A DNA stretch of 62,414 bases, the filler included, from Candidatus Delongbacteria bacterium (GTDB taxonomy: Bacteria; UBA4055): assembly GCA_016937995.1 (NCBI GenBank). It is 3 parts of 3 records of this genome, joined end to end, with 100 filler letters (N's around TTAATTAATTAA, not from the genome) between each part and the next. Parts side by side here need not be neighbours in the genome. Positions count along the whole stretch, not along the records: positions 55,105 to 62,414 come from JAFGVM010000011.1; 2 more parts are not named here. One strand, given 5' to 3'. Below are positions 277 to 62,414 of the stretch, piece after piece. Position numbers and translations under genes: made by a program. Each line of letters starts with the position of its first letter. Within the stretch, counting starts at the first letter, position 1. The notes below the pieces were generated by a model. That model saw nothing but the letters and a program-made list of their open reading frames with translations, was not told where the DNA came from and did no database searches.

Positions 277-3200
277 TTGATGAGGAAAATTTTAGCCCTG
301 ATGTTGGCACTGTTTGCTGCAAGCATCTTTGCTGCTGACTGGCATTCCAATGCAGAAAGAATGGAAATTAAACCAAGAATTGCAAGCAAGGATACAGTTT
401 GGTATAGTTATGCGCAATCCGGCTCTGGATGGGTAATGCAGGTTCCGATGGAAAGAGCAACGTATTATCAAATTGATGATTTTACAATTGAGTATCCCTC
501 GATTCTTCATGGTGTTGACACTTATCTTTTTGACATCGGAGAAGAATTCACTTACAAAGTTTACGCTAAGGATGGTGTAACATTATTATGGGAATCTGCT
601 GTTGTTTCTTCTGTGGAAGGATATAACGAAGTGCTACTTGACACACCGATCGTTATGACAGATGATTTCTGGCTTTCAATTGCTCCCGTAACCGGAGGAT
701 ATCCAAGACAGTTCGCTCAGGACCAGGTTGAACCTTGTCACAGTTATTTAAGTGACGGTGCAGGTGGATGGGATCAATGGACTGCTACAGGTGGTAAATA
801 CTACGAAAATTTCAATTATGTATACCTGGAGCCTTACTCAGGTGCAGATATTTATCCTCCGAATGCAAGAGACTTAACCGGAACTGATTGCTTTCAGGAC
901 TTTGATATGAACCTTACTCTCACAGTTCATGATCAGAATCCGGTGACTTCACCAATGTCCTCCCAATATTCTCTTGACGGCGGATCAACATGGACTGATT
1001 TCAATATGATCTCAGCTAAAGGCAGTTATACATTTACTGGTACTATCCCCGGTCAGCCCGATGGAACAACCGGGATTGTAAAGTTCAATCTGGATGATGG
1101 GATCAATACACCAGTATGGTCAAATAACTACAATATCATGTGGTCTAAAGACCTGCCTTTATTTGTTGAGGATTTTGAAAATACTTCTTTCCCTCCAAGT
1201 GGATGGACATTAGTTACAACAGGAGCTGGCTGGGTCGAAGGTTCACCTGTTACCGGAGGATTTGCTCATAGTGGTTCAAAGTCAGCTACTCATTTGGATG
1301 ATAGCGGTGCACAGGATGACTGGTTAATAACTCCTGTGATATCTATTCCTCCTGATCCTTCTGCTACTTTAAATTTCTGGGAAACTGTTTATTGGACACA
1401 GTATATGAACGGTATTAATGAGATCTGTGTAACGGTAGATGGCGGAGCAACTTTTACTCAGATATGGGCTGAAGATGCAGCATTTGTGGCTGCAAATATA
1501 ATTGATGGTGATTTCTATTACAGATCAGCGACATTGTCGGCTTATGCCGGCCAGGATATTCAATTAGGTTTCCATTATACAGGTGATTACGGTTGCCAAT
1601 GGTATATAGATGATATAGAGGTTCTTTATGATTATGAAGCTCCTTCTATAACTTCAATTATTGCAAATGAAGCTCTATCCCCGGTTGTGGGTGCATATCT
1701 TAATAATGATATGTTGATAATACTCGATATTTATGACGTTACCGGAGTAGCTTCAGTTGTTGGACATTATACATTTGACGGTGGAACTACTATAGTTGAT
1801 GTGGATTTTTCTCAGTCAAAAGGTGGAACTGAATACTGGACAGGAACTATCCCGGCAATGGCTTCAGTATCTTCAGGAACAATAAATTTTGATCTTACTG
1901 ATATTGGAGGTTTATCAGGCACGAGTACGGATTATAACATTGAATTCGTATATGATGACGGAATACCTGTAATTAATCTATTCGATTATGGAGATCCGGT
2001 ATTTGTGACTGATGACATGAATTTAAAACTATACTTTTCTGACGAATCCGCAATATCTAGTTGTACGGGTTATTACAGTAAAGATGATTTTGCAACTTCA
2101 GTTCCTGTAACAATGACTCCTTCAAAAATCAATGATTATATGTATGTATGAATTATTCCGGCTGAGGCTACCGAAACTTTCGCAGAAGTTGCTTTCTCAG
2201 TAGCTGATGTTGAAGGTAATATCACAAACTCTGAAGAATATCAGGTCAAATGGCTTGACGGAGCTATAGTTTTCTTTGATGATTTTGATGCTAACTATGA
2301 TCCTGCTAACTGGATATATCCTTCAGGAACAACATGGGCTGTAACTGATGAAACTTCTTATTCTCCTACTCATTCAATGACAGATAGTCCCGGAGGCAAC
2401 TATGATGATCAGGTAATAAGTTCATTATGGACTAAAGCTATTGATCTAAGTAGTGCAGAAGCAGCTACAATGTTCTTTTGGGCAAAGATAGATCTTGAAA
2501 AAGATTTTGATTATGTTTATCTGCAGGCTACACCTGATAACGGTATGACATGGATACAGGTCGCTGTATTTAACGGAGAAGGTGGTGACTGGGAATTCCA
2601 GACAATTAATCTTGGTGCTTTGGCACATGAGGCAGCAGTTCAATTCAGATTCTATTTTGTTTCTGATCTTTATGTCACAACTGATGGTATGCATATAGAC
2701 GATATTAAAATTGCTTCTTATAATCAGGACTATTCATGGCCAATTCCTTACTATGAGACAGGTCCTTTAGTTGTTGGTACTGATCCGTATGTAGTGACTG
2801 TAGATCTTCAAGATCCTTCTGGAATCAGTGAAAGTAAGCTTATATATTCTGTTGATGGTGGACCTGAAATGGAAGTAATATCTGACCCTGCATCCGGTGC
2901 TAGTGGTATGTACTCATACACGATACCTGCTCAAGCACCTTACTCAAGAGTATCATATAAAATTACAGCGTTTGATAATTCGCCTTATCTTAATTACATG
3001 GAAACTAAAAACTATGAGATAATCTTCGGTAATTACCTATATTATGAGAATGGAGATGAATATACAGATTATCTTGATATCATAGGTTCTGATGTAACTG
3101 CTTCGGCTTACGCTATCGCAAAACGAATTACAATGGGACCACTTGAAACAAAAGACCATTACAAAGCGGATCTTGTTGGATTCACAATTGCAAATTACAT

Positions 3201-4161
3201 ATCTGAAGAATACCCTAGTGACCCGTTATATGCTCATGTGTGGGAAGATACAGGTAACGGACCTGGAGAAGACCTCATACCACCAATTTACATGGTGCAA
3301 GGTGCAACGTTAGAAGATTCGTATGCTCTTACATGGGTCGATCTAACATCATATTCGGCTGAATTGTCTGATCTTGAAGGTGATGTGTATGTGGGTTATA
3401 CTTCAGCCGGAACTGCTACTAATATACTTTATGAAGTTGTTTCCAGTCATACAGGAGAACCGGGTTATACTGCTTTTAAAAGATCTTGGTTGGGTATTGG
3501 AAATGATGCAGGTGTAGTATGGTCTCTTGATCAGGCAAATGTATACCATATCAGTGCAATTACCGGACCTTATACACTGGTCGATGCACCATTAGCTCCT
3601 CTTGGGCTGACGGGTAGAGGCGGTGAAGGCAACATTATCTTAGAATGGATCCCTGGAGTTGAAGATGATATTGACTACTATAATGTATATAGAGGTCTTA
3701 CAGAGGATTTTACTATCGGAACTCCAATAGGAACTGTTCTGGCTACTGATCCAGCTACTTATGTAGATGTTGCTCCTACAGGAACTATTGATGGTTATTA
3801 TTATTATAAAGTTACTGCTGTTGATGTTGATTCGAACGAAGGATCTGCTTCTAAAGAAGTAAAAATCAATCCAACAGGTATAGATGGTAATATTCCTTTA
3901 ATTACAGCTCTGGAGCAGAACTACCCAAATCCATTCAATCCTGTTACTACTATTAATTTCAGTACAGCAGTTGAAGGAAATGTTAATTTAACTGTTTACA
4001 ATACTGCAGGTGCGGTTGTTGCAAAATTAGTTGATGGAAGAATGGACAGAGGTTATCATTCTGTTGAATTTAACGCTTCAAGTTTAGTAAGTGGTATCTA
4101 TTACTATTCTATGAAACTCAATGATAAAGTGTTCACACACAAAATGATGCTTCTTAAATAA
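277..4161 (+). pseudogene. Large (~1294 codon) secreted multi-domain protein (Ig-like repeats, cleaved-adhesin/MAM-like and FN3-like domains, T9SS-type CTD) interrupted by one in-frame TGA at 2149-2151
   Basis: ORFs 277-2151 and 2377-4161 are in the same frame and 2152-2376 is open (IIPAEATETFAEVAFSVAD...). Signal peptide on the first part, NYPNPFNP...KMMLLK on the second. GGAGG RBS upstream (ATG at 280 is the likely start). Confidence 0.8.
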
Positions 4162-4178
4162 TACTTGCTTTAATAATG

Positions 4179-4211
4179 AAAAAGCCCGGCATACTTGTCG
4201 GGTTTTTTTTT
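4179..4211 (+). terminator. Rho-independent terminator
   Basis: AAAAAGCCCGGCA-TACT-TGTCGGGTTTTTTTTT, near-identical to 178-208. Confidence 0.85.
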
Positions 4212-4227
4212 ACTTTTGAAAAATATC

Positions 4228-4256
4228 TTTACTAAAAACCAATAATTTTGTATTTT
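4228..4256 (+). promoter_or_regulatory. Putative sigma70 promoter of leuS
   Basis: TTTACT-17 nt-TATTTT, ending 37 nt before the leuS ATG. Confidence 0.45.
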
Positions 4257-4293
4257 ATGCACGCTTGATAAACATTAATAAAAAGGTAAGATT

Positions 4294-6753
4294 ATGGCAT
4301 ATCCATTTAAAGAGATAGAAAAGAAGTGGAGAAAATATTGGGAGGATAATAAGATCTATTCTACTGATATGAACTCAGATAAACCAAAATATTATAACTT
4401 ATGTATGTTTCCTTATCCATCCGGAGATAAATTACATCTTGGGCATTGGTTTAATTACGGTCCATTTGATGCACATTCCAGATTTATGAAAATGAGAGGA
4501 TATAATGTTTTATCACCTGTCGGTTATGATTCATTCGGCCTTCCAACAGAAAATTACTCATTAAAAAACAATATACATCCGGCTGAAGCAACAGAGATCA
4601 ATATTAAAAAATTTACAGAACAGTATAAGGGCATTGGTGGAATGTATGACTGGGATCATTATCTAGCGACCAGTGACCCTTCATATTATAAATGGACTCA
4701 ATGGCTATTCCTTACATTATACAAGAATGAACTGGCTTATCAATCTGATGGTATGATCAATTATTGTCCTGAATGTGCAACCGTAGTTGCGAACTCTGAA
4801 GTATTTGCTGATGGATCTCACGAACGTTGTGGTACAATTATTGAGAAAAAATCAATAAAAAGCTGGTATTTCAAAACTACGAAATATGCTCAAAGACTTT
4901 TAGACGACCTTGATAAAACTGATTATCCTGATAAAACAAGATTAATGCAGACTAACTGGATAGGCAGATCTGAAGGTGCTATTATAAATTTCAAAGTTGT
5001 TAATACAGATAAGTCATTTGATGTTTTTACAACAAGACCTGATACACTTTACGGAGCAACCTATTGTACATTAGCCCCTGAATCACCTCTGGTAATGGAT
5101 ATCGTGACCGATGATCAAAAAGAAGATGTATTAAATTACATTGAGTCAATAAAATCTTTATCTGAAATTGACAGACAGTCAACGGTTAGAGAGAAAACAG
5201 GTGCGTTCACAGGAGCTTATGCAGTCAATCCTATTAATGGTAATGAAATACCTGTATGGATCTCTGATTATGTTCTGTTATCTTACGGTACCGGTGCTGT
5301 TATGGCTGTTCCAGCCCATGATACTAGAGATTTTGAATTTGCTGCAAAATTCAATATTCCTTTAAAAGTAGTGATCAAACCTTTCGATAGAGAATTGAAT
5401 GATAATAATATCACAGAAGCTTATACCGAAGAAGGTATAATGGTTAATTCTGCTGAGTTTACAGGTATTAACTCAAAGGAAGGCATTACTAAGGTAACTG
5501 AAAAACTTGCTTCTGAAGGAAACGGAAAGAAGCATATTTCTTATAAACTAAGAGACTGGTCAATATCAAGACAGAGATATTGGGGAGTTCCAATTCCTAT
5601 TATCTACTGTGATGATTGTGGAACGGTCCCGGTTCCTGAAAAGGATCTGCCTGTATTACTTCCTATGGATAAGAACATGGATATTAAACCTAAAGGCCAT
5701 GCTCCTCTATCACTGGTTGATTCATATATGAATACTACATGTCCAAAATGCGGTAAACCTGCTAAAAGAGATCCTGAGACTATGGATACTTTTGTATGTT
5801 CAAGCTGGTATTATTTAAGATATGTTAACACAAAGCTTGACAATAAACCTTTTGACAAGGATGAACTTTCCAAATGGATGCCCGTAGATGCATATATAGG
5901 TGGAACTGAGCACGTTAACGGACACATGATATATTCCAGATTTGTAACTAAAGCTCTTTTCGATCTTGGATACCTAACCTTTGATGAACCATTCTATAAA
6001 GTAATTCATCAGGGCATGATCACCAGGGATGGTGGAAAAATGTCTAAGAGTAAAGGTAATGTTGTATCTCCTGATGAATTTGTTGATCAGTATGGTACTG
6101 ATGTTTTCAGATTATATATGATGTTCATGACAAATTTCAGAGATGGTGGTGACTGGTCTGACGATGGAATTGCGGGTGTTGACAGATTTGTGAACAGGAT
6201 CTGGCGTTTAGTTTACGAAAATGATATTAAGAACACGGGTAATAAAGTTATTGATGCAGATCTTAATTACAGGTTAAACTATACTATCAAGGAAGTTACC
6301 TCAAGTGTAGAGGATTTCTATTTCAACACATCTATAGCAAGATTAATGGAGCTGTTCAATGAGTTGTCGGCTTACCAGAAAGATGAAAAGAGATTTAATC
6401 CTGATTTCTACAATGAAGTGGTCGAGAAATTTATCATTATGCTTTCTCCGTTCACTCCGCATATCGCGGAAGAACTTTGGGAGATATTTGGGAACAAACC
6501 ATCTTTATTCAACGCACCATGGCCTCAGTTTGATCAGAGTGCAATGGTAAAGCAAAACCAGACAATCACAGTTCAGGTAAATGGGAAAGTAAGAGCGAAC
6601 ATTGAAGCTCCTGTTGATATTGATGACGAGGCGATAAAAGAACTTGTTTTTAATGATGAAAAGGTAATAGCTCACATGAGTGGTAAACAACTTGTTAAAA
6701 CAATTGTAATAAACGCGAAATCAGGTAAAATGGTTAATCTGGTTTTAAGATAA
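4294..6753 (+). CDS. leuS: Leucine--tRNA ligase
   Basis: MFPYPSG..LHLGH (HIGH), KMSKSKGN, FTTRPDT and GTGAVMAVPAHD editing-domain motifs, QVNGKVR C-terminus. Confidence 0.98.
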   Translation: MAYPFKEIEKKWRKYWEDNKIYSTDMNSDKPKYYNLCMFPYPSGDKLHLGHWFNYGPFDAHSRFMKMRGYNVLSPVGYDSFGLPTENYSLKNNIHPAEATEINIKKFTEQYKGIGGMYDWDHYLATSDPSYYKWTQWLFLTLYKNELAYQSDGMINYCPECATVVANSEVFADGSHERCGTIIEKKSIKSWYFKTTKYAQRLLDDLDKTDYPDKTRLMQTNWIGRSEGAIINFKVVNTDKSFDVFTTRPDTLYGATYCTLAPESPLVMDIVTDDQKEDVLNYIESIKSLSEIDRQSTVREKTGAFTGAYAVNPINGNEIPVWISDYVLLSYGTGAVMAVPAHDTRDFEFAAKFNIPLKVVIKPFDRELNDNNITEAYTEEGIMVNSAEFTGINSKEGITKVTEKLASEGNGKKHISYKLRDWSISRQRYWGVPIPIIYCDDCGTVPVPEKDLPVLLPMDKNMDIKPKGHAPLSLVDSYMNTTCPKCGKPAKRDPETMDTFVCSSWYYLRYVNTKLDNKPFDKDELSKWMPVDAYIGGTEHVNGHMIYSRFVTKALFDLGYLTFDEPFYKVIHQGMITRDGGKMSKSKGNVVSPDEFVDQYGTDVFRLYMMFMTNFRDGGDWSDDGIAGVDRFVNRIWRLVYENDIKNTGNKVIDADLNYRLNYTIKEVTSSVEDFYFNTSIARLMELFNELSAYQKDEKRFNPDFYNEVVEKFIIMLSPFTPHIAEELWEIFGNKPSLFNAPWPQFDQSAMVKQNQTITVQVNGKVRANIEAPVDIDDEAIKELVFNDEKVIAHMSGKQLVKTIVINAKSGKMVNLVLR

Positions 6754-27104: not shown

Positions 27105-27203
27105 NNNNNNNNNNNNNNNNNNNNNNNNNNNNNNNNNNNNNNNNNNNNTTAATTAATTAANNNNNNNNNNNNNNNNNNNNNNNNNNNNNNNNNNNNNNNN
27201 NNN
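27105..27203. other. Artificial contig linker (N44-TTAATTAATTAA-N43)
   Basis: All-frame stop spacer flanked by Ns; identical copy at 55005-55103. Confidence 0.97.
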
Positions 27204-27519
27204 NCGGTGGTGGCATAATTTCATTGCCGGAATATGTTTCATAGAATGATTTCATTCTCCAAATATTCCTTGGTGAAAAACCACGAACTCCAGGGAAATT
27301 AATCTGAAGGTCTTTTGATAATCTTTCGACTGTAGAATCTCCCCATGATTCACTTTTAATCTTATCGCTTACAGTATTACCTATAAACCAATACAGCAAT
27401 ACGGTTTCTTTGTTAACCTTCTTTAGCATCGACAGTCTAGCTTTATTGATCCTTTTGATTATCGTACTCAAAGTTGACTCGTAGTCAGATGAGATTATTT
27501 TACTTTTTTTTGCAGTCAT
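27204..27519 (-). CDS. DUF1016/YhcG family protein, N-terminal part (cut by the gap)
   Basis: VNKETVLLYWFIG..WGDSTVERLSKDLQ..FPG.RGFSPRNIWRMKSFY. Confidence 0.85.
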
Positions 27520-55004: not shown

Positions 55005-55103
55005 NNNNNNNNNNNNNNNNNNNNNNNNNNNNNNNNNNNNNNNNNNNNTTAATTAATTAANNNNNNNNNNNNNNNNNNNNNNNNNNNNNNNNNNNNNNNN
55101 NNN
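55005..55103. other. Artificial contig linker (N44-TTAATTAATTAA-N43)
   Basis: Identical to 27105-27203. Confidence 0.97.
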
Positions 55104-55183
55104 NGACTTTTTCTTTTTTTAATATTTTGAATCTAACTCATCACTTACCACTTACCACTTACAACTTTTAAATAATTTTCAAA

Positions 55184-56704
55184 TTATTTTAGCAACAACA
55201 TCTTCTTTGTCATTGAAGGAACTCCATCTACATTAAGTTTGTAAAAGTAAATTCCTCCGGTAAGTTCAGATGCGTTGAAACTAATACTGTGCTCACCTTT
55301 TTCCATCAGATTATTGACTAAAGAACTAACAATTTCACCGCTGGAATTATATACAATTAATTCAACATTTGAATTATTTTCTAACCTGAATTTGATCTCT
55401 GTTGTTGGATTAAAAGGGTTAGGGTAGTTTTGATATAATAAATTACCATTTATCATTACCGGGTTATCATTTATCCCTGTTGTAGTCCATAATCTGACAT
55501 CGTCGACATACCAGATATCACCCGCAATTCCCTGATAATTGAACCCGATATATATCTCCTGTCCGTCATATTCACTTAAGTCAACATAAGTCTGCTGCCA
55601 ATTTGATGTATGAGGAAGATTATACTCTACCATATTGTAACGGCCCAGGTCTTTTGTTGTTCCAACACTATGAATTCCGGTAGCTGAAGAGTATTTTGTT
55701 TTTTCCCAGAATGATAGAACAGCATTTCCTGTTATCATCATTTTTGGAGAATACATCCAGTCATCCTGAGCGTCAAAATCATCATAAGAATGAGCTGCGG
55801 AAAATACTCCTGTGTTGGGATCTGATAACTGAATCCATCCAAGTCCTGTTGTTTGAAGTATCCATCCTGTCGGTTCAAAACTACCTTCAAAACTTTCGTA
55901 AAGATTCTGAAATAAAGCCGGATCCAGTGTTCCTACCTGCAGATTAACAAAACTTTCCTTCCCTGTGACTGTTGCACGAATAGTCAGGTCTACTGTTGTC
56001 ATTTTCTGATGACTGTCCAGAATAAGATCGCTCCCGTTCACACTTGCAGTGACAGCTTCATTGTCAGAATTTGAATAGACCTCGTAAGTTATATCTAAAC
56101 CTGTCCCGTTATAAAAAACTGATGAAAGGTCTATAGTCTGTTGCTCATCAAAATACATATCTGCAATGTCTGGTACGTTCGTAGGGTATAATTCGAAATT
56201 TGCTAATGCCGCATCAATATGTACTGTTAATTGTGACTCAGTAGAAAATGTATTTCCAACCATATATGCCTGATATCCGGGTCCTACAACAATGTTATAT
56301 GGAACATAACCATTCCCAAACCCGCTGTATAATGATCCTAATTCACTCGCTATTGAAACATAGTACGTTAAATTTGGAGTAAAAACTGTTCTCCAGCCAG
56401 TTGTGTTCATACTGTCCCAGTTATTGTTATTTGTACTCCCGAATGCTATATGCAAACTCGAATGATCGTAATCATTCCAGATATTTTCAAACAACGGAGC
56501 CTCCGTTGAACAACCGGGTCAACCTAAGTAGCCCCAGGTTAATACTACAACTTTCCCAGCATCAACCATATCATATAGATTTCTGGTTACAGGTGCTCCT
56601 CCGTCTGAATCCTGCCAGGTTACATTGTCAACAATATCCCATTGATTATACTCAGCGAATACTGACAAAGATATTATCAGAATCAGTAAAAATATTTTTT
56701 TCAT
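55184..56704 (-). CDS. Candidate selenoprotein (506 aa, Sec62): secreted thioredoxin-fold UxxC domain + Ig-like + cleaved-adhesin-like domain + T9SS-type CTD
   Basis: ORFs 56519-56704 and 55184-56494 join in frame: VVVLTWGYLG-TGA-PGCSTEAPLFENIW. Hairpin 10 nt after the TGA; cis-Pro-like GYVPYNIVV. Confidence 0.85.
56492..56508 (-). promoter_or_regulatory. Candidate bacterial SECIS hairpin
   Basis: CAACGG-AGGCU-CCGUUG stem-loop starting 11 nt after the UGA. Confidence 0.65.
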
Positions 56705-56723
56705 TTGTCACTCCCTTTGTTAC

Positions 56724-58337
56724 CTAAAATTCTGATATCAATGTCATCCTGAAACCGTCAAATTCAGGAACCTGTCTGCATGCACCTCCGGAACATTTAA
56801 TTCCGGCTCTCTCTCTACCGTAAAACAGTTCAAGCTTATGATTATCATATATATTAATACCGGCTTCAAATCCCAGCCATGAATCAGGAGCATCTTCAGC
56901 TACTTCTTCAGAAGTAGTTATCAATGAAATATTTAAATAACCATATTCAGGATATGAATATTCGACAGCAAAATACATGTCATCATAATCCTCATCCATA
57001 AGTTCATTTGTAACGGTCTGATATTCACCTGCGAACATCAATCCTGAGTTTTCGTTCAACTCATAATGAAATTCGCCCAGGAATGTAATCCTTTCATCAG
57101 AGTATACACCGGTCGAATCTGTATCTGTTTCTCCGGGAATAATGAACTGATTCGCATCTTTAGACAGTGGAGCATCTTTCAGATAACCACCGCCTATCTT
57201 AATGTTATATTCACCTGTCCCGTATTTTGCGTCAGCCCAAATATCCATGTAAGGCAGATAATCATCTGAGAATTCAGGCATAACAGCGTCTTTATTGTGC
57301 TTCGATGCAACTGCAAAAATAGTTGAAATATCAAGATTATCTACAGGATTTGTAAGAATTGAAAGTTTATATCCTATCTCATCGTTCGGATTTATCTCAT
57401 GAGGATGAGAGTTCAATAAATGTGATGTATGCTCTATCGTAAGTTCAGGCCCACCTTGATAAGGTGTAAATCCGGAAACAGTAGCATTAGGGTTAGCAGC
57501 ATACTGATAGTAATCTTTGAATTCTAAAGTTATCCCGAATCCCTCTCTTGAATAAGCTAATGAAGTATAATTTGCCCAGCCTTGTTTCGATGGGCTTCTC
57601 TGAGTGGTCTTAAGAGCGTATTCATTGTACAGATCAAAGTTCAACGCACTTGCACTAAAACTTATTCCTCCAATTTCTGTCTCTTCGATAAAGCTGGCTT
57701 CATAAAGGAATTGCAGCTCCGGAACATAATCTCCCTTCATATAAAGATAAGACCCACCCAAGTTCAAAACATAATTTTCGAGCTTAAATATTTCGCTTAG
57801 ATTCAAGATCGTTTCACTACCCAAAAGCATTGTATTCATCTGATCAACACTCTTGTTTGAAGTGTCAAAATCGTTTATATACTTGAAGTAACTTTTTCCA
57901 CCTAATGCCTGAAATGTAAGAAAGTCACCTTCGTACATTAACTTTCCTCCGGTAACTTTACTGTCAAAAAAATCAGCTCTTTCCTCCTTCAGATCAAGAA
58001 CAACTCCTCTACCGAATGTACCGTAAAAATCACCGGCTGTGATCGTTATGTCATTGTTGAAGTACTTGAAAAACTTCTTTGTAAAACCATTTAAAGCTTC
58101 ATTAAACTCACTGGAATCAGCAGCTTCATATCTGAACCCCAGGGAAAAATCACCTTTTGAAGCATCAACTGATATACAATCCTGAACGTATTGTTTTTTT
58201 ATCTCAATATCTTTATCGTCTCCAACCCATTCACTCCCGGTTCCAAATTTTATGGTATTAGTTGCTGATATTTCAAATTCCTCAGCTATGACCATACTAA
58301 AAGCAACAAATATTAACATAAGAATTAATTTTTTCAC
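56724..58337 (-). CDS. Outer membrane beta-barrel, DUF6029-like, with a C-terminal CSGGAC motif
   Basis: Signal peptide, TAGDFYGTFGRGVVL, C-terminal YGRERAGIKCSGGACRQVPEFDGF..F. Confidence 0.75.
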   Translation of the reverse strand: MKKLILMLIFVAFSMVIAEEFEISATNTIKFGTGSEWVGDDKDIEIKKQYVQDCISVDASKGDFSLGFRYEAADSSEFNEALNGFTKKFFKYFNNDITITAGDFYGTFGRGVVLDLKEERADFFDSKVTGGKLMYEGDFLTFQALGGKSYFKYINDFDTSNKSVDQMNTMLLGSETILNLSEIFKLENYVLNLGGSYLYMKGDYVPELQFLYEASFIEETEIGGISFSASALNFDLYNEYALKTTQRSPSKQGWANYTSLAYSREGFGITLEFKDYYQYAANPNATVSGFTPYQGGPELTIEHTSHLLNSHPHEINPNDEIGYKLSILTNPVDNLDISTIFAVASKHNKDAVMPEFSDDYLPYMDIWADAKYGTGEYNIKIGGGYLKDAPLSKDANQFIIPGETDTDSTGVYSDERITFLGEFHYELNENSGLMFAGEYQTVTNELMDEDYDDMYFAVEYSYPEYGYLNISLITTSEEVAEDAPDSWLGFEAGINIYDNHKLELFYGRERAGIKCSGGACRQVPEFDGFRMTLISEF

Positions 58338-58355
58338 TTTTTCCCTCTTATCTAA

Positions 58356-59315
58356 TTATTTTGAATATGCCTGATTGTACATTTTCTGCTGCCATTCTTC
58401 AAAATCACCGTCATTTAATAAATCATATTTGATTATTATACCTGTTGGCATAATAGCTATAACGTCATTATTGGTCACTGCTACAAGACCGTCTGTCTGC
58501 TCTTCTACAAAAGTCTCTACATAATCTTCTGTACCGTCCCAGAAACAATCATATGGAAGACTATTCTCTGTTCTAAAAGCATCGAATTGTCTTCTATCAA
58601 TAAATGTATGATTTCCGAAAAGTGAGTGAGAGAATGGTTCATTATAATTCGGATTTTCATACATATTTTTAAAGGCAACTGCCTCTTCCAGACAAGAAGC
58701 TCAACCGTCAGCAAGAAACTGTATAAATGTAAGCTGCTCAACCTTTCCTGTAAAATCGATAGAGTCTCTTCCGGTATTTTCCAGCAGACCGAATTTTTCA
58801 AAAATCTTCTCTTGGAGGTATTTTTTTTCAAAGTTGTAACCTAATTTTTCAGAATTACTAATGTTTTCTGATTCATCAGCAATTGAAAAATACAAATAAA
58901 ATTTCTGAGGATTAATTTCCTGAACAGCAGGTAGATCTGCCACATTTAGTATAAACAGATAATCTCCTTTTTCATCTGCTGATTTTGATTCTAGCTCATA
59001 GGATATTTTACTAAGCCAATCTTCCGCAAAAAGTGATACTTTATGTAGTGTTCCATTATCAATAGCCGATATAACCATACCATAGTCAGTTGTAAATTTT
59101 AAACTATCCTGAAAATGTACAAATGTTGTATCTAGATTCAATTCAAAATACTGAGAATCGTATATTGTGTCTAAAGTCGAACAGTTGTAAATTACAACTC
59201 TTTGCACTTCGGGTGATTCAAAATCCACATTAACAGGTGTTTCTGTGTGACATGAGTAGAAAATAAAGGCTAAAAATACCAGCATACCCATGAAAAATAA
59301 GTTTAGATTCTTCAT
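58356..59315 (-). CDS. Candidate selenoprotein (319 aa, Sec205): lipoprotein with a C-terminal thioredoxin-fold UxxC domain
   Basis: Lipobox FYSC. ORFs 58701-59315 and 58356-58664 join in frame: FTGKVEQLTFIQFLADG-TGA-ASCLEEAVAFKNMY. Confidence 0.82.
58671..58686 (-). promoter_or_regulatory. Candidate bacterial SECIS hairpin
   Basis: AGAGGC-AGUU-GCCUUU stem-loop starting 15 nt after the UGA. Confidence 0.5.
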
Positions 59316-59848
59316 TTGCTCTTTTCCTCACTTTTTTCATCATTTATTTCAACTTTTACTTCGGAATCAAAAGCTGATAATATTGCTTCCTCGAACATTT
59401 TTTCTGTTCCTTTCCCATCCTGCTTGAAAACGATTTCTCCTTTCGTGTTCAAAATAAAGGTCACAGGTACTTTAGAAGAACATCCGAAGCTTTTAAATAC
59501 TTTTTTATCACTGTCAAAAAGGACCTGAAAATCAAATCCTTTAGACTTTACAAAACTCTTAGCCTTTTGGATAGCACTTCCTTTATCTATCGTGATAAGG
59601 AGCATACTGAGACCTTTATCCTTGTATTTATTATAAAGGTCATTGAACAACGGCATTTCCTCTTTACATGGAACACACCATGATGCCCAAAAATCAATTA
59701 AGACCGGCCCTTTTGCTAAAACTTCTTCAAGTTTCACTGATTTCCCGTTAATATCTTTCAACTTGAAATCAGGTGCTTTTTTCAGTTCCTCTGAAAATAG
59801 TATAACACTAAAAAAAAGTAGTGCTAACATCACTTTTTTCAATACCAT
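59312..59848 (-). CDS. TlpA/ResA-like thiol-disulfide oxidoreductase
   Basis: Signal peptide, APDFKL.D..G, IDFWASWCVPCKEEMP, VPVTFIL. Confidence 0.93.
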   Translation of the reverse strand: MVLKKVMLALLFFSVILFSEELKKAPDFKLKDINGKSVKLEEVLAKGPVLIDFWASWCVPCKEEMPLFNDLYNKYKDKGLSMLLITIDKGSAIQKAKSFVKSKGFDFQVLFDSDKKVFKSFGCSSKVPVTFILNTKGEIVFKQDGKGTEKMFEEAILSAFDSEVKVEINDEKSEEKSK

Positions 59849-60043
59849 CTTTGATCCTCACATTTAATTTGTGTATGTTCAATTCCTGCAACATAGATAT
59901 TTATCTATATTCTTCCTAGTCCTATAGTATCAAATAAAAAATAAAAAAACAAGGTTAAAGTTAACAAATAATACAGATTTAACTGCGTTACTGCAAGTTC
60001 CTCACAATCAAAATATCCATTGATTGTTTCCAAATAAAACAAA

Positions 60044-60072
60044 TTGACAAATCTGGCTTTGAGGATTATATT
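60044..60072 (+). promoter_or_regulatory. sigma70 promoter
   Basis: TTGACA-17 nt-TATATT upstream of the aminopeptidase. Confidence 0.65.
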
Positions 60073-60120
60073 CTAGGTCTGTTAATTGTCGTATAAAAAT
60101 TTATATAAAGGAGATTAGCA

Positions 60121-61545
60121 ATGGCAAAGGAAAAAAAATCAGATCTCGAAAAATTGGGTGAAAAGCTTCTTTTTACCAAAAAGAACGGGTGGGATGGTCT
60201 TGAAAAAAAGAACTTCGATACTGTAATGGCCCTTTCTGAGGATTACAAAAATTTCCTTAATTCGAGTAAAACTGAAAGAGAGTCCATTGATACTATCGCT
60301 AAACTTGCCAAAAAGTTTGGTTTTGTTGATATCAAAAAAGCTAAGAGAACAGATAAAAAGCTTTTTATCAATTATGATGGTGTTGCCGGTTCATTGGTCT
60401 ATGTAAAAGACCCAAAGAAATTTCATGAGGGTTTCCTTATGAATGGAGCTCATATAGACGTTCCGAGAATCGATCTTAAACAGAACCCGCTTTATGAAGA
60501 TGAAGATATGGCTTACATGAAAACTCACTATTATGGTGGAATAAAAAAATACCAGTGGGTAACCAGACCTTTAGCTCTTCATGGAGTTATTATTCTTGAA
60601 AATGGTAAAACTGTAAAAGTAAATATCGGTGAAAAAGATACAGATCCGGTATTTACAATCAATGATCTGCTTCCTCATCTTGCTCAGGACCAGTACAAAA
60701 AAACTCCTGCGACTGTTGTTGAAGGTGAACAGCTGAATATTCTTGTAGGATCTATACCCTACAAATTCAAGCATGAAAAAAATGCCGTAAAATTAGCTAT
60801 ACTCGATCATTTGAATAAAGAGTATGGTATAGTTGAAGAGGATTTTGTAAGTGCTGAATTACAATTAGTTCCTGCCGGAAATGCCAGGGATATAGGATTT
60901 GACAGAAGCTTTGTCGGATCTCACGGTCATGATGACAGGATCTGTGCATATCTTGGAATGAAAGCTATCTTAGACATTAAAGAGAAGGATATTAAGAAGA
61001 ATTTAATGATGATCTTCTTTGATAAGGAAGAGATCGGTTCTGCCGGAAATGCCGGTGCGGATTCTAATATTGTTGAAAGAATGGTCAATGATGTTCTACA
61101 GCTGAACGGAAACAAAGATTACAATGTCCTGATAAAAGCACTTGAGAACTCCAAACTACTTTCATCTGATGTAAATGCCGGAATTGATCCTGCCTGGAAG
61201 AGTGTGAATGAACCAATGAACGCTGCTAAGATCGGTTACGGAGTTTGTTTGACTAAATTCACTGGATCAGGAGGTAAAGGTGGTTCTAATGAAGCTCATG
61301 CTGAATTTGTAGCTGATGTAAGAAAAGCTTTCAACAAAGACGGCGTTCTATGGCAAACTACAGAACTTGGAAAAGTGGATCAAGGTGGTGGTGGTACTAT
61401 CGCAAAATATTTGGCTTCTTACGGAATGGATGTGGTTGACTGCGGAACAGCATTGCTTTCTATGCACGCTCCATTCGAAATTGCTTCAAAAATAGATATT
61501 TATCACACTTACAAAGCGTATCTTGCTTTCTACAAATACTTGTAG
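60121..61545 (+). CDS. M18 family aminopeptidase
   Basis: KTERE, AHIDVPR, HYYGGIKKYQW, DDR, DKEEIGS, GGGGTIA, LSMHAP. Confidence 0.93.
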   Translation: MAKEKKSDLEKLGEKLLFTKKNGWDGLEKKNFDTVMALSEDYKNFLNSSKTERESIDTIAKLAKKFGFVDIKKAKRTDKKLFINYDGVAGSLVYVKDPKKFHEGFLMNGAHIDVPRIDLKQNPLYEDEDMAYMKTHYYGGIKKYQWVTRPLALHGVIILENGKTVKVNIGEKDTDPVFTINDLLPHLAQDQYKKTPATVVEGEQLNILVGSIPYKFKHEKNAVKLAILDHLNKEYGIVEEDFVSAELQLVPAGNARDIGFDRSFVGSHGHDDRICAYLGMKAILDIKEKDIKKNLMMIFFDKEEIGSAGNAGADSNIVERMVNDVLQLNGNKDYNVLIKALENSKLLSSDVNAGIDPAWKSVNEPMNAAKIGYGVCLTKFTGSGGKGGSNEAHAEFVADVRKAFNKDGVLWQTTELGKVDQGGGGTIAKYLASYGMDVVDCGTALLSMHAPFEIASKIDIYHTYKAYLAFYKYL

Positions 61546-61572
61546 TAAGGAGCAGTTTATTGATTTCACATG

Positions 61573-61602
61573 AAAAGGGTATCAAAATCGGTACCCTTTT
61601 TT
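61573..61602 (+). terminator. Rho-independent terminator
   Basis: AAAAGGGTATC..GGTACCCTTTTTT. Confidence 0.75.
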
Positions 61603-61616
61603 ATTGAAAAAACATT

Positions 61617-62372
61617 TTGAATATATATATTTCGTTAATGAAAAAAGAAAATATAAAGATAATACTCTCAAGAACTTGGTCACCAGGCAATATTGGCTCA
61701 ATACTAAGGTCTATGAAAAATTTTGATTTTAGCAACATTGTCGCTGTTGATCAGATAAATTTTGATGATATAGAAATGAACATAATGGCTGCCGGAGCTA
61801 AGGATCATATCAGATATTTAAGAAATAGTGATGATCTTAAAACAGAGGTCGAGAGTTGCAATGTTGTTTATGCTTTCACTGCAAGAAAAAGAAAATATTA
61901 TAAATATCTTACACCCAAGTCTATGGCTAACGAGATCATTCAATTAGGAAATGATGTAAAGGTCGGCTTACTGTTTGGTAATGAAACTAATGGTCTGACA
62001 AATGATGAAACAGACCTGGCGGATAAGCTAGTTTGTATCCCTACGTCTGAAAAATACTCTTCCATGAATCTTGCAAGTGCTGTAATGATAGCTCTCTACG
62101 AATTAAGCAACTCACTCTCAGTAGGCATTAGATCTGAGTTCAGTGAAGATCTTATCAATTTGAAAGAAAAAGAAGAACTTTTTAACATTACCTCATCTCT
62201 TGTAAGTCAGAAATTGATGCATAAATCAAATAATCAGAAGAAGATAAGGGAAAATATCAGGCATCTTCTTAAGAGGGTCAATCTAAATAAAAAAGAAATT
62301 GGCTTCATAAGAAGTATCATCAAGATTATTGATATAAACATTCCTGAACCTGAACAGGATAATAATAACTGA
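61617..62372 (+). CDS. SPOUT RNA methyltransferase, TrmJ/LasT-like
   Basis: PGNIGSILRSMKNF, FTAR.R, LFGNETNGL, IPT...YSSMNLASAV. Confidence 0.85.
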   Translation: MNIYISLMKKENIKIILSRTWSPGNIGSILRSMKNFDFSNIVAVDQINFDDIEMNIMAAGAKDHIRYLRNSDDLKTEVESCNVVYAFTARKRKYYKYLTPKSMANEIIQLGNDVKVGLLFGNETNGLTNDETDLADKLVCIPTSEKYSSMNLASAVMIALYELSNSLSVGIRSEFSEDLINLKEKEELFNITSSLVSQKLMHKSNNQKKIRENIRHLLKRVNLNKKEIGFIRSIIKIIDINIPEPEQDNNN

Positions 62373-62414
62373 CTTGATACAAGCCTTAAAATCCTTTCAA
62401 AAAATACTTGACAA

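Follow-up and report, generated by a model that had tools for sequence, protein, structure and literature searches.

A probable four-gene envelope redox operon in a Candidatus Delongbacteria bacterium, with two predicted selenoproteins, one of them carrying a type IX secretion tail

We analyzed a 62,414-nucleotide stretch of DNA (hereafter, the window) from the genome of a Candidatus Delongbacteria bacterium (GTDB lineage Bacteria; UBA4055; GenBank assembly GCA_016937995.1). Our subject is a minus-strand region at 55184-59848 that encodes a TlpA-type thioredoxin-fold protein, a lipoprotein, a DUF6029 outer-membrane beta-barrel and a protein with the tail of type IX secretion system (T9SS) cargo. 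The best overall explanation of this region is probably a four-gene envelope redox operon in which two of the products, the lipoprotein and the cargo, are selenoproteins. Both of their genes contain an in-frame TGA, and we hold with high confidence that the two TGAs are selenocysteine (Sec) codons, each decoded via a hairpin starting 13-17 nucleotides (nt) downstream. They are best read in this way because Cys-containing homologs, a covarying hairpin that resembles a Sec insertion sequence (SECIS) and Sec machinery across the phylum all support it, as an earlier note made from the sequence alone had proposed. In both proteins Sec takes the place of the first Cys of the CxxC motif in a TlpA/ResA-type thioredoxin fold, which is the C-domain of the lipoprotein and the N-domain of the cargo.

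Under translation table 11 the region falls into six pieces, which become four open reading frames (ORFs) once TGA is read through, and the ORF coordinates give a 4-bp overlap followed by gaps of 18 nt and 19 nt. Both TGAs lie within the common context GGT-TGA-NNN-NNN-TGT-NNN-NNN-GAG-GCN. The earlier note had described this gene arrangement as well as the identical context and its alignment to the WCVPC of the neighboring TlpA, and these points are confirmed in the sequence, the alignment being confirmed by hhalign for the cargo N-domain. Its statement that all four products carry an export signal is also supported, with the hydrophobic N-terminal signal of TlpA and the signal peptide of the cargo judged by inspection. 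The features of the operon, with protein lengths in amino acids (aa) and with immunoglobulin abbreviated to Ig, are as follows.

59312..59848, minus strand: operon gene 1, a TlpA/ResA-like exported thiol:disulfide oxidoreductase of 178 aa, in which WCVPC provides C58 and C61
58356..59315, minus strand: lipoprotein of 319 aa with U205 and lipobox ...FYSC, consisting of an Ig-like (RhoGDI-like) N-domain and a ResA/DsbE-like C-domain with G-U-A-S-C
58701..58703, minus strand: in-frame TGA of the lipoprotein gene, read as Sec
58671..58686, minus strand: SECIS-like hairpin in the lipoprotein gene with a 6-bp stem and loop AGUU (nt 18-33, numbering from the U of UGA)
56724..58337, minus strand: DUF6029 outer-membrane beta-barrel of 537 aa, with a signal peptide and the C-terminus ...LISEF
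56778..56795, minus strand: codons of the barrel motif C515-S-G-G-A-C520
55184..56704, minus strand: T9SS type-A cargo of 506 aa with U62 and an N-terminal signal peptide, consisting of a ResA-like UxxC domain (~18-170), an Ig-like domain, a MAM/CBM-like 'choice-of-anchor J' jelly roll and a sorting domain (427-506)
56519..56521, minus strand: in-frame TGA of the cargo gene, read as Sec (G-U-P-G-C)
56492..56508, minus strand: SECIS-like hairpin in the cargo gene with the 7-bp stem CAACGGA/UCCGUUG and loop GGC at nt 21-23 (whole hairpin nt 14-30, numbering from the U of UGA)

The contig that bears the operon makes up only positions 55105-62414 of the window. Linkers at 27105-27204 and 55005-55104, each of the form N44 - ttaattaattaa - N44, mark the window as three concatenated contigs; since the contigs were joined by these linkers, genes that flank a linker are not neighbors.

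Homologs of both proteins carry Cys where the window has TGA. For the lipoprotein, nine full-length homologs have KGCLSC at this position and two further ones stop exactly at the column. The lipoprotein gene was detected in 12 of 15 Delongbacteria genomes, and the codon at the column is TGA in genomes G001 and G015 and in the metagenome locus L100, and TGT or TGC in the Cys forms. G001 is the nearest relative among the contigs searched, a Candidatus Delongbacteria metagenome-assembled genome (MAG) in which the barrel (locus L001) is 75% identical. For the cargo, a family-profile search of 1.84 billion representatives returned 686 proteins at E <= 1e-10. Among 20 library proteins examined, drawn from 150 listed of these 686, 13 picked by eye have CxxC at the aligned motif (P0033, P0034, P0035, P0036, P0039, P0041, P0042, P0044, P0045, P0047, P0048, P0049 and P0052), several with T9SS tails, and a Cys form with WCVPC (L036) is found in the cargo family as well. 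Public protein sets contain only fragments of the two Sec proteins (P0001 of 204 aa, P0016 of 408 aa), with the cargo pieces mostly beginning past the Sec column, which bears out the earlier suggestion that standard annotation would miss them.

The hairpin is a second line of evidence. In nearly all family members it begins 13-17 nt past the UGA and in most of them has GGC at nt 21-23; 39 of 43 sites are more stable than shuffles of synonymous codons that keep the protein (mean z = -1.10). By this control the window cargo reaches z = -2.66, with 1% of shuffles equally stable, and the window lipoprotein z = -1.50. Pairing also covaries: in 23 of the 40 cargo-family sites, a set that we selected ourselves in a single register (the others pair in shifted registers), 93.9% of cells pair versus 73.7% in shuffles, four of the five pairs vary on both sides, none of 500 shuffles reaches the score and slid registers fall far below it. 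For L001 and L018, energy minimization yields the lipoprotein hairpin; at the window site the same hairpin letters are present, but the minimum-energy fold favors another pairing. All seven Cys-form lipoprotein genes inspected (7/7) lack the hairpin. The selD gene of G001 has a hairpin with the geometry of the cargo family, its stem starting at nt 14 and a GGA loop lying at nt 21-23. This SelD is itself a selenoprotein (…AAGUAGK…; locus L011 in G001:C79, with the TGA at locus position 1531).

Sec machinery is widespread in the phylum. G001 encodes selA (547.8 bits), selB (332.4 bits) and selD (357.8 bits, with one TGA within), together with a tRNA-Sec identified by Rfam (54.3 bits, anticodon UCA). 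Across the 15 Delongbacteria genomes, selA was found in 14, selB over its cut-off in 12 and tRNA-Sec in 14, with selD looked for in G001 only. On one contig of G002 (G002:C65; 9689-9783 and 13152-13799), about 3.4 kb separate a tRNA-Sec from a DsbD-type gene of 624 aa.

A third in-frame TGA, at window positions 2149-2151, was considered as a Sec codon and rejected, as it has no UxxC, no stop in the listed homologous matches and no hairpin signal (z = -0.09). It lies in a plus-strand gene (280-4158) for a 1293-aa T9SS-tailed protein, in the context YMYV-U-IIPAE; Gly occupies this position in the closest orthologue (82% identity). A nonsense mutation or an assembly error probably accounts for this TGA, which acts as an internal negative control.

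Going by the fold and profile matches described below, the operon has a barrel and three TlpA/ResA-type redoxins, each redoxin with an export signal of a different kind. TlpA matches Pfam AhpC-TSA (5.2e-26) and Redoxin (3.6e-24), both above cut-off; it falls under every cut-off of the NCBIfam ResA, TlpA and DsbE models, the best match being ResA with 110.8 bits versus a cut-off of 170. The barrel matches Pfam DUF6029 (PF19494; 7.6e-47, 160.6 bits versus a gathering cut-off of 27), and a profile of 12 barrels searched against PDB sequences gave 0 matches at E <= 10. The cargo has matches to Por_Secre_tail (PF18962; 39.2 bits, cut-off 27), TIGR04183 (32.1 bits, cut-off 23) and choice_anch_J (47 bits, cut-off 30). 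SprA, the only T9SS component looked for, scores over its cut-off in the nearest genome, G001, where the search was made. For the lipoprotein, neither a Pfam family at E <= 0.1 nor a meaningful NCBIfam match was obtained, so the Omp28-like membership suggested in the earlier note was not upheld.

The structure model of the cargo (pLDDT 85 from a 32-row alignment, and above 90 across most of the thioredoxin-fold domain) shows a thioredoxin fold (~20-170), an Ig-like domain, a jelly roll and a sorting domain, in that order. Its N-domain superposes on the ResA-type thiol-disulfide oxidoreductase 4nmu_A (TMt 0.80, rmsd 2.8), and the jelly roll resembles MAM, CBM and gingipain-adhesin folds in a structure search. 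U-x-x-C opens helix 1, and the cis-Pro loop GYVP is conserved, with P135 invariant. In agreement with this, hhalign aligns the cargo N-domain profile to TlpA over 150 columns (97.85%, E 6.7e-13), with the U column falling on the first Cys of WCVPC. The lipoprotein model (pLDDT 72) consists of a RhoGDI-like Ig domain and a C-domain like ResA, DsbE and a Bacteroides thiol-disulfide oxidoreductase, with Foldseek matches including 3fw2, 1su9 and 1lu4 (TMt 0.63-0.77). An Atlas search with the natural Cys form P0003 gave weak TlpA-like leads only (score 0.84), and the case for a TlpA/ResA-type fold in this modeled C-domain is weaker than for the cargo N-domain or TlpA.

T9SS-tailed, ResA-like UxxC redoxins form a family that extends across the phylum and is expanded in tandem, and the cargo is one of its members. 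A six-frame search with the cargo N-domain yielded 45 matches in 12 of the 15 genomes, and 41 of these have exactly one TGA, seen at the UxxC column in those loci inspected. The open frames are ~500-650 aa long and often in tandem, with up to nine matches per genome. The four matches that have no TGA are the Cys form L036, two motif-less paralogues and one short piece from which the column is missing. Because a single TGA recurs at the same column in 41 of the 45 cargo matches and in the lipoprotein of G001, G015 and L100, the two TGAs of the window are far beyond chance.

Arrays of two to four Sec-redoxin paralogues are found at G007:C74 (7966-13321), G015:C355, G015:C334, G014:C19 and G002:C51, and such tandem arrays suggest recent gene amplification. 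Short forms of 262-275 aa (L038, L042 and L043, from G002 and G003) consist of the UxxC domain and the T9SS sorting domain only, with the motif DFGxxxUGxC. The gene convergent to the barrel in G001 (L001 5109-7076, minus strand) encodes a 655-aa Sec-cargo paralogue with WUSYC that is not the orthologue of the window cargo.

The lipoprotein and the DUF6029 barrel form a fixed gene pair. They adjoin in 11 of 11 relatives' loci and in all eight Delongbacteria-like metagenome loci that show the upstream flank (8/8); L093, L096 and L098 match G009, G008 and G013 in values and are probably identical contigs. The barrel is present as one gene per genome in 11 of the 15 genomes, and presence and absence of the two genes agree over all 15 with the exception of G015, whose contig is cut off. 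All 12 barrel orthologues (12/12) share the motif K-C-[SA]-G-G-[ATS]-C-R, conserved without exception. A Sec-cargo gene comes after lipoprotein and barrel in the window, in four genomes (G004, G009, G010 and G013) and in the metagenome loci L094, L095, L097 and L099. Of the 15 genomes, 12 have a TlpA orthologue; the gene precedes the lipoprotein-barrel pair only in G001, G015 and the window. In G013 and G014, a DUF4835 protein is encoded just upstream of the pair (L085 4196-5092 and L083 4640-5545), with a similarity to PorD of 31-38 bits versus a cut-off of 170; this PorD-like neighbor hints at a tie between the module and type IX secretion.

Fusions of a redoxin to the barrel are found elsewhere. 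On L103, a distant, high-GC contig, a single gene product of 640 aa joins a TlpA-like domain on its N-terminal side to a DUF6029 barrel with the terminal sequence KCAGGACK; the adjacent gene encodes a lipoprotein that combines CarboxypepD_reg and TlpA-like CxxC domains. Further, the Atlas contains a cluster of 59 TlpA-DUF6029 fusions in which Krumholzibacteriota are most frequent. Also beside the L103 fusion (3373-6474) are a small OMP_b-brl protein and two BNR/Sortilin-repeat proteins.

Folded without alignments, the window barrel and TlpA gave an ipSAE of 0.79 in three runs while the best of three controls gave 0.00; 51 of 78 solved complexes attain this score, as do 2 of 108 mismatched pairs. 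Agreement of contacts between runs is 94% or more, and the partner pLDDT is at least 82. The barrel contributes alternating strand residues along its entire chain together with 513, 515 and 517-522, which belong to the Cys loop, and the TlpA interface includes residues 55-61 and with them C58 and C61. From these contacts we infer that TlpA is modeled within the barrel lumen as a plug. By co-occurrence, the lipoprotein C-domain is at least as good a plug candidate. Whether a TlpA-type domain, either TlpA itself or the lipoprotein C-domain, plugs the DUF6029 barrel as modeled is in our view evenly balanced.

Selenoproteins with UxxC in the AhpC/TSA and thioredoxin-like families are established predictions in the available part of a review (PMC13188914). 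Like those described there, the operon's domains have a thioredoxin fold, Sec for the first Cys, Cys homologs and a UGA with a downstream hairpin (PMC13188914, available part). The main text of this review, in the same part, makes no mention of secretion, periplasm, signal peptide or Delongbacteria. Unlike the known UxxC selenoproteins, the operon's domain is fused to Ig-like, MAM/CBM-like and T9SS modules or to a lipoprotein anchor; it occurs as several tandem paralogues per genome, is linked to DUF6029 and, in the cargo, scores below the cut-off of the Pfam peroxiredoxin family PF00578 (AhpC-TSA; 15.7 versus 26 bits). A ResA-like selenoprotein is also represented by the NCBIfam model NF041054 ('ResA-like WAxxUGC motif-containing protein'), for which the operon TlpA scores 52.4 bits versus a cut-off of 300. 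Neither Sec protein of the operon matches it at E <= 0.1, and their motif is G-U-x-x-C, not U-G-C.

TlpA, ResA and CcmG (DsbE) are reductases of the periplasm or the outer face of the cytoplasmic membrane that serve cytochrome c or copper-protein maturation and are fed by DsbD or CcdA. The operon's redoxins share their fold, CxxC position and cis-Pro loop, and DsbD_TM proteins are found in 14 of the 15 phylum genomes. Unlike these reductases, two of the three operon copies appear to use Sec, one predicted to be anchored in the outer membrane and the other to be exported by T9SS. LptD-LptE and TonB-dependent transporters are plug-and-barrel outer-membrane proteins. As in these and in Wzi, our model places a globular domain in a large barrel, touching lumen-facing residues, and the TlpA-like domain of L103 is N-terminal to its barrel, as a plug would be; unlike them, the operon's predicted plug would be a redox enzyme and its barrel has an invariant Cys pair. 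The cargo resembles T9SS type-A cargo (TIGR04183 / PF18962) in its signal peptide, beta-sandwich modules and C-terminal sorting domain.

In the mechanism that we propose, the cargo proteins would be secreted or surface-anchored selenol:disulfide oxidoreductases. We lean towards the view that the cargo reduces or reshuffles disulfides, or other oxidized sulfur or selenium species, on substrates held by its binding modules. Reducing equivalents would pass from inner-membrane DsbD to TlpA, on to the plugged barrel and from there to the surface selenoproteins. Such outward carriage of reducing equivalents by the plugged barrel, from DsbD via TlpA to the surface selenoproteins, is a tentative and rather unlikely step. 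Doubtful, too, is the more general form of this idea, in which a redoxin in the DUF6029 lumen (free, lipoprotein-borne or fused) and C-x-G-G-x-C would make up an outer-membrane thiol/selenol conduit, a counterpart of DsbD that recharges T9SS-displayed Sec redoxins. A trans-outer-membrane relay may be regarded as a plausible hypothesis with some computational support from the complex model.

A number of observations weigh against the operon and mechanism as set out above, and we consider them here together with the other explanations. The TGAs could be plain stops, in split or decaying genes or through assembly errors, or a sense codon for Trp or Gly. The full-length cargo homolog P0019, which has one assembly source and is available as a protein only, has Trp at the Sec column, and the window TGA at 2149-2151 aligns with Gly. 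A non-Cys residue such as Trp at this column had been named in the earlier note as a result that would speak against Sec; this Trp occurs in one protein, is possibly the product of a gene caller reading TGA as Trp and is outweighed overall. The lipoprotein homolog P0013 has Asp at its Sec column, and two paralogues in G003 (L073 in G003:C216 and L074 in G003:C122) keep the fold and T9SS architecture and have lost both redox residues, probably as inactive or repurposed copies. ARAGORN finds no tRNA in the window and none in L012, where Rfam detects tRNA-Sec. Rfam itself gave no SECIS family, either for the whole window at gathering score or for 56400-58800 at E <= 10, where only chance snoRNA/miRNA rows appeared, and each site folded alone is not significant against dinucleotide shuffles (z = -0.27 and -0.62). 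The covariation set was of our own choosing, and the machinery evidence comes from relatives, the source genome not being among the 15. No RNA run is among the listed runs that contain the sequence, and the one RNA run compared gave a single 35-nt piece with 4 differences. What speaks against plain stops or recoding is that each gene has a single TGA, which invariably occupies the first UxxC position, with the frames conserved on both sides in dozens of paralogues, in addition to the Cys homologs, the covarying hairpin and the Sec machinery. TGA also terminates TlpA and other ORFs (among 27 window ORFs of at least 250 aa, TAA ends 20, TAG 4 and TGA 3), and the control TGA at 2149 has neither a hairpin signal nor a stop in its listed homologous matches. 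Further, a separate assembly of run X2, which may be the source sample, matches 57255-59848 without a difference, a range outside which the cargo TGA lies. We therefore consider this explanation very improbable. It is also improbable, to a lesser degree, that the Sec domains are surface peroxidases (peroxiredoxin-like or glutathione peroxidase-like) instead of disulfide reductases. Sec is typical of peroxidases, the cargo N-domain has weak AhpC-TSA (E 0.015) and Redoxin (E 0.065) matches, and the lipoprotein model has GPX8 and a PDI-peroxidase among its fold matches. However, the arrangement is that of TlpA, ResA and DsbE, with U-x-x-C at the N-terminal end of helix 1 and a conserved cis-Pro loop, the top structural matches are ResA-type, and the Pfam peroxiredoxin score stays below its cut-off.

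The selenoproteins may also be real and the relay absent, an explanation that we take seriously and consider possible without favoring it. The T9SS redoxins would then act alone outside the cell, re-reduced by ambient sulfide or small thiols of the anoxic sediment or used only once; the lipoprotein and barrel would be a separate unit, for instance a porin of the Wzi type whose plug responds to redox state or a barrel that needs a dedicated disulfide helper, and the gene order would mirror shared regulation of envelope redox genes. In line with this, G002 and G007 have seven and five cargo-family matches with no barrel or lipoprotein detected, and G005 and G008 have the barrel and no cargo; as all of these are incomplete MAGs, such absences are weak evidence. 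There is a single barrel gene per genome versus up to nine cargo matches, and the cargo follows the barrel in the same direction in 4 of 11 relatives' loci. TlpA orthologues outside the three linked loci (45-57% identity) are in unrelated gene contexts, which are uninformative in G013 and G002, for example. DUF6029 is described in the available part of PMC9603273 as a Wzi-barrel-like fold without a plug and is suggested there to be a polysaccharide porin. By ordinary barrel topology the Cys loop is placed at an extracellular hairpin tip, and it could be a purely structural disulfide. The sequencing runs that contain the sequence are labeled freshwater and sediment metagenomes, and an external reductant in sulfidic sediment could render a relay unnecessary. 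The complex-model result does not single out which family member binds, nor whether C58/C61 are in contact with C515/C520, and no DsbD_TM protein was found in G001. Against the absence of a relay stand the order lipoprotein, barrel, Sec-cargo in four more genomes and four more metagenome loci, the fusion of redoxin and barrel in a different phylum, and the position of the barrel's invariant Cys pair in the modeled interface with the redoxin active site. The link between TlpA and DUF6029 that the earlier note named is partly retained: the genes are adjacent in the window and two relatives, fused in L103 and the Atlas cluster, and pass the complex model, but are mostly unlinked elsewhere. Its electron relay to the surface draws support from the complex model and the fusions and is set back by the G002 and G007 cargo genes with no detected barrel, while electron passage via the Cys loop is only hypothesized.

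With the region read as an envelope redox operon with two selenoproteins, the candidate phylum appears, judging from its gene content, to place several Sec redoxins per genome at the cell surface or to release them into the medium. Our searches of the open literature found nothing relevant that combines selenoproteins with type IX secretion or Delongbacteria with selenocysteine, and as far as these searches show, T9SS-sorted bacterial selenoproteins are apparently undescribed there. Because standard annotation splits every such Sec gene, these selenoproteins are invisible in protein databases. For DUF6029, a TlpA-type redoxin as partner or fusion together with the invariant Cys pair is a first concrete functional lead. 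If the plug-and-barrel arrangement is true, it would make testable how, if at all, thiol reducing power exits a diderm cell. With its natural Sec/Cys pairs and its compact SECIS, the family can also serve to study why Sec is favored at exposed, oxidizing sites.

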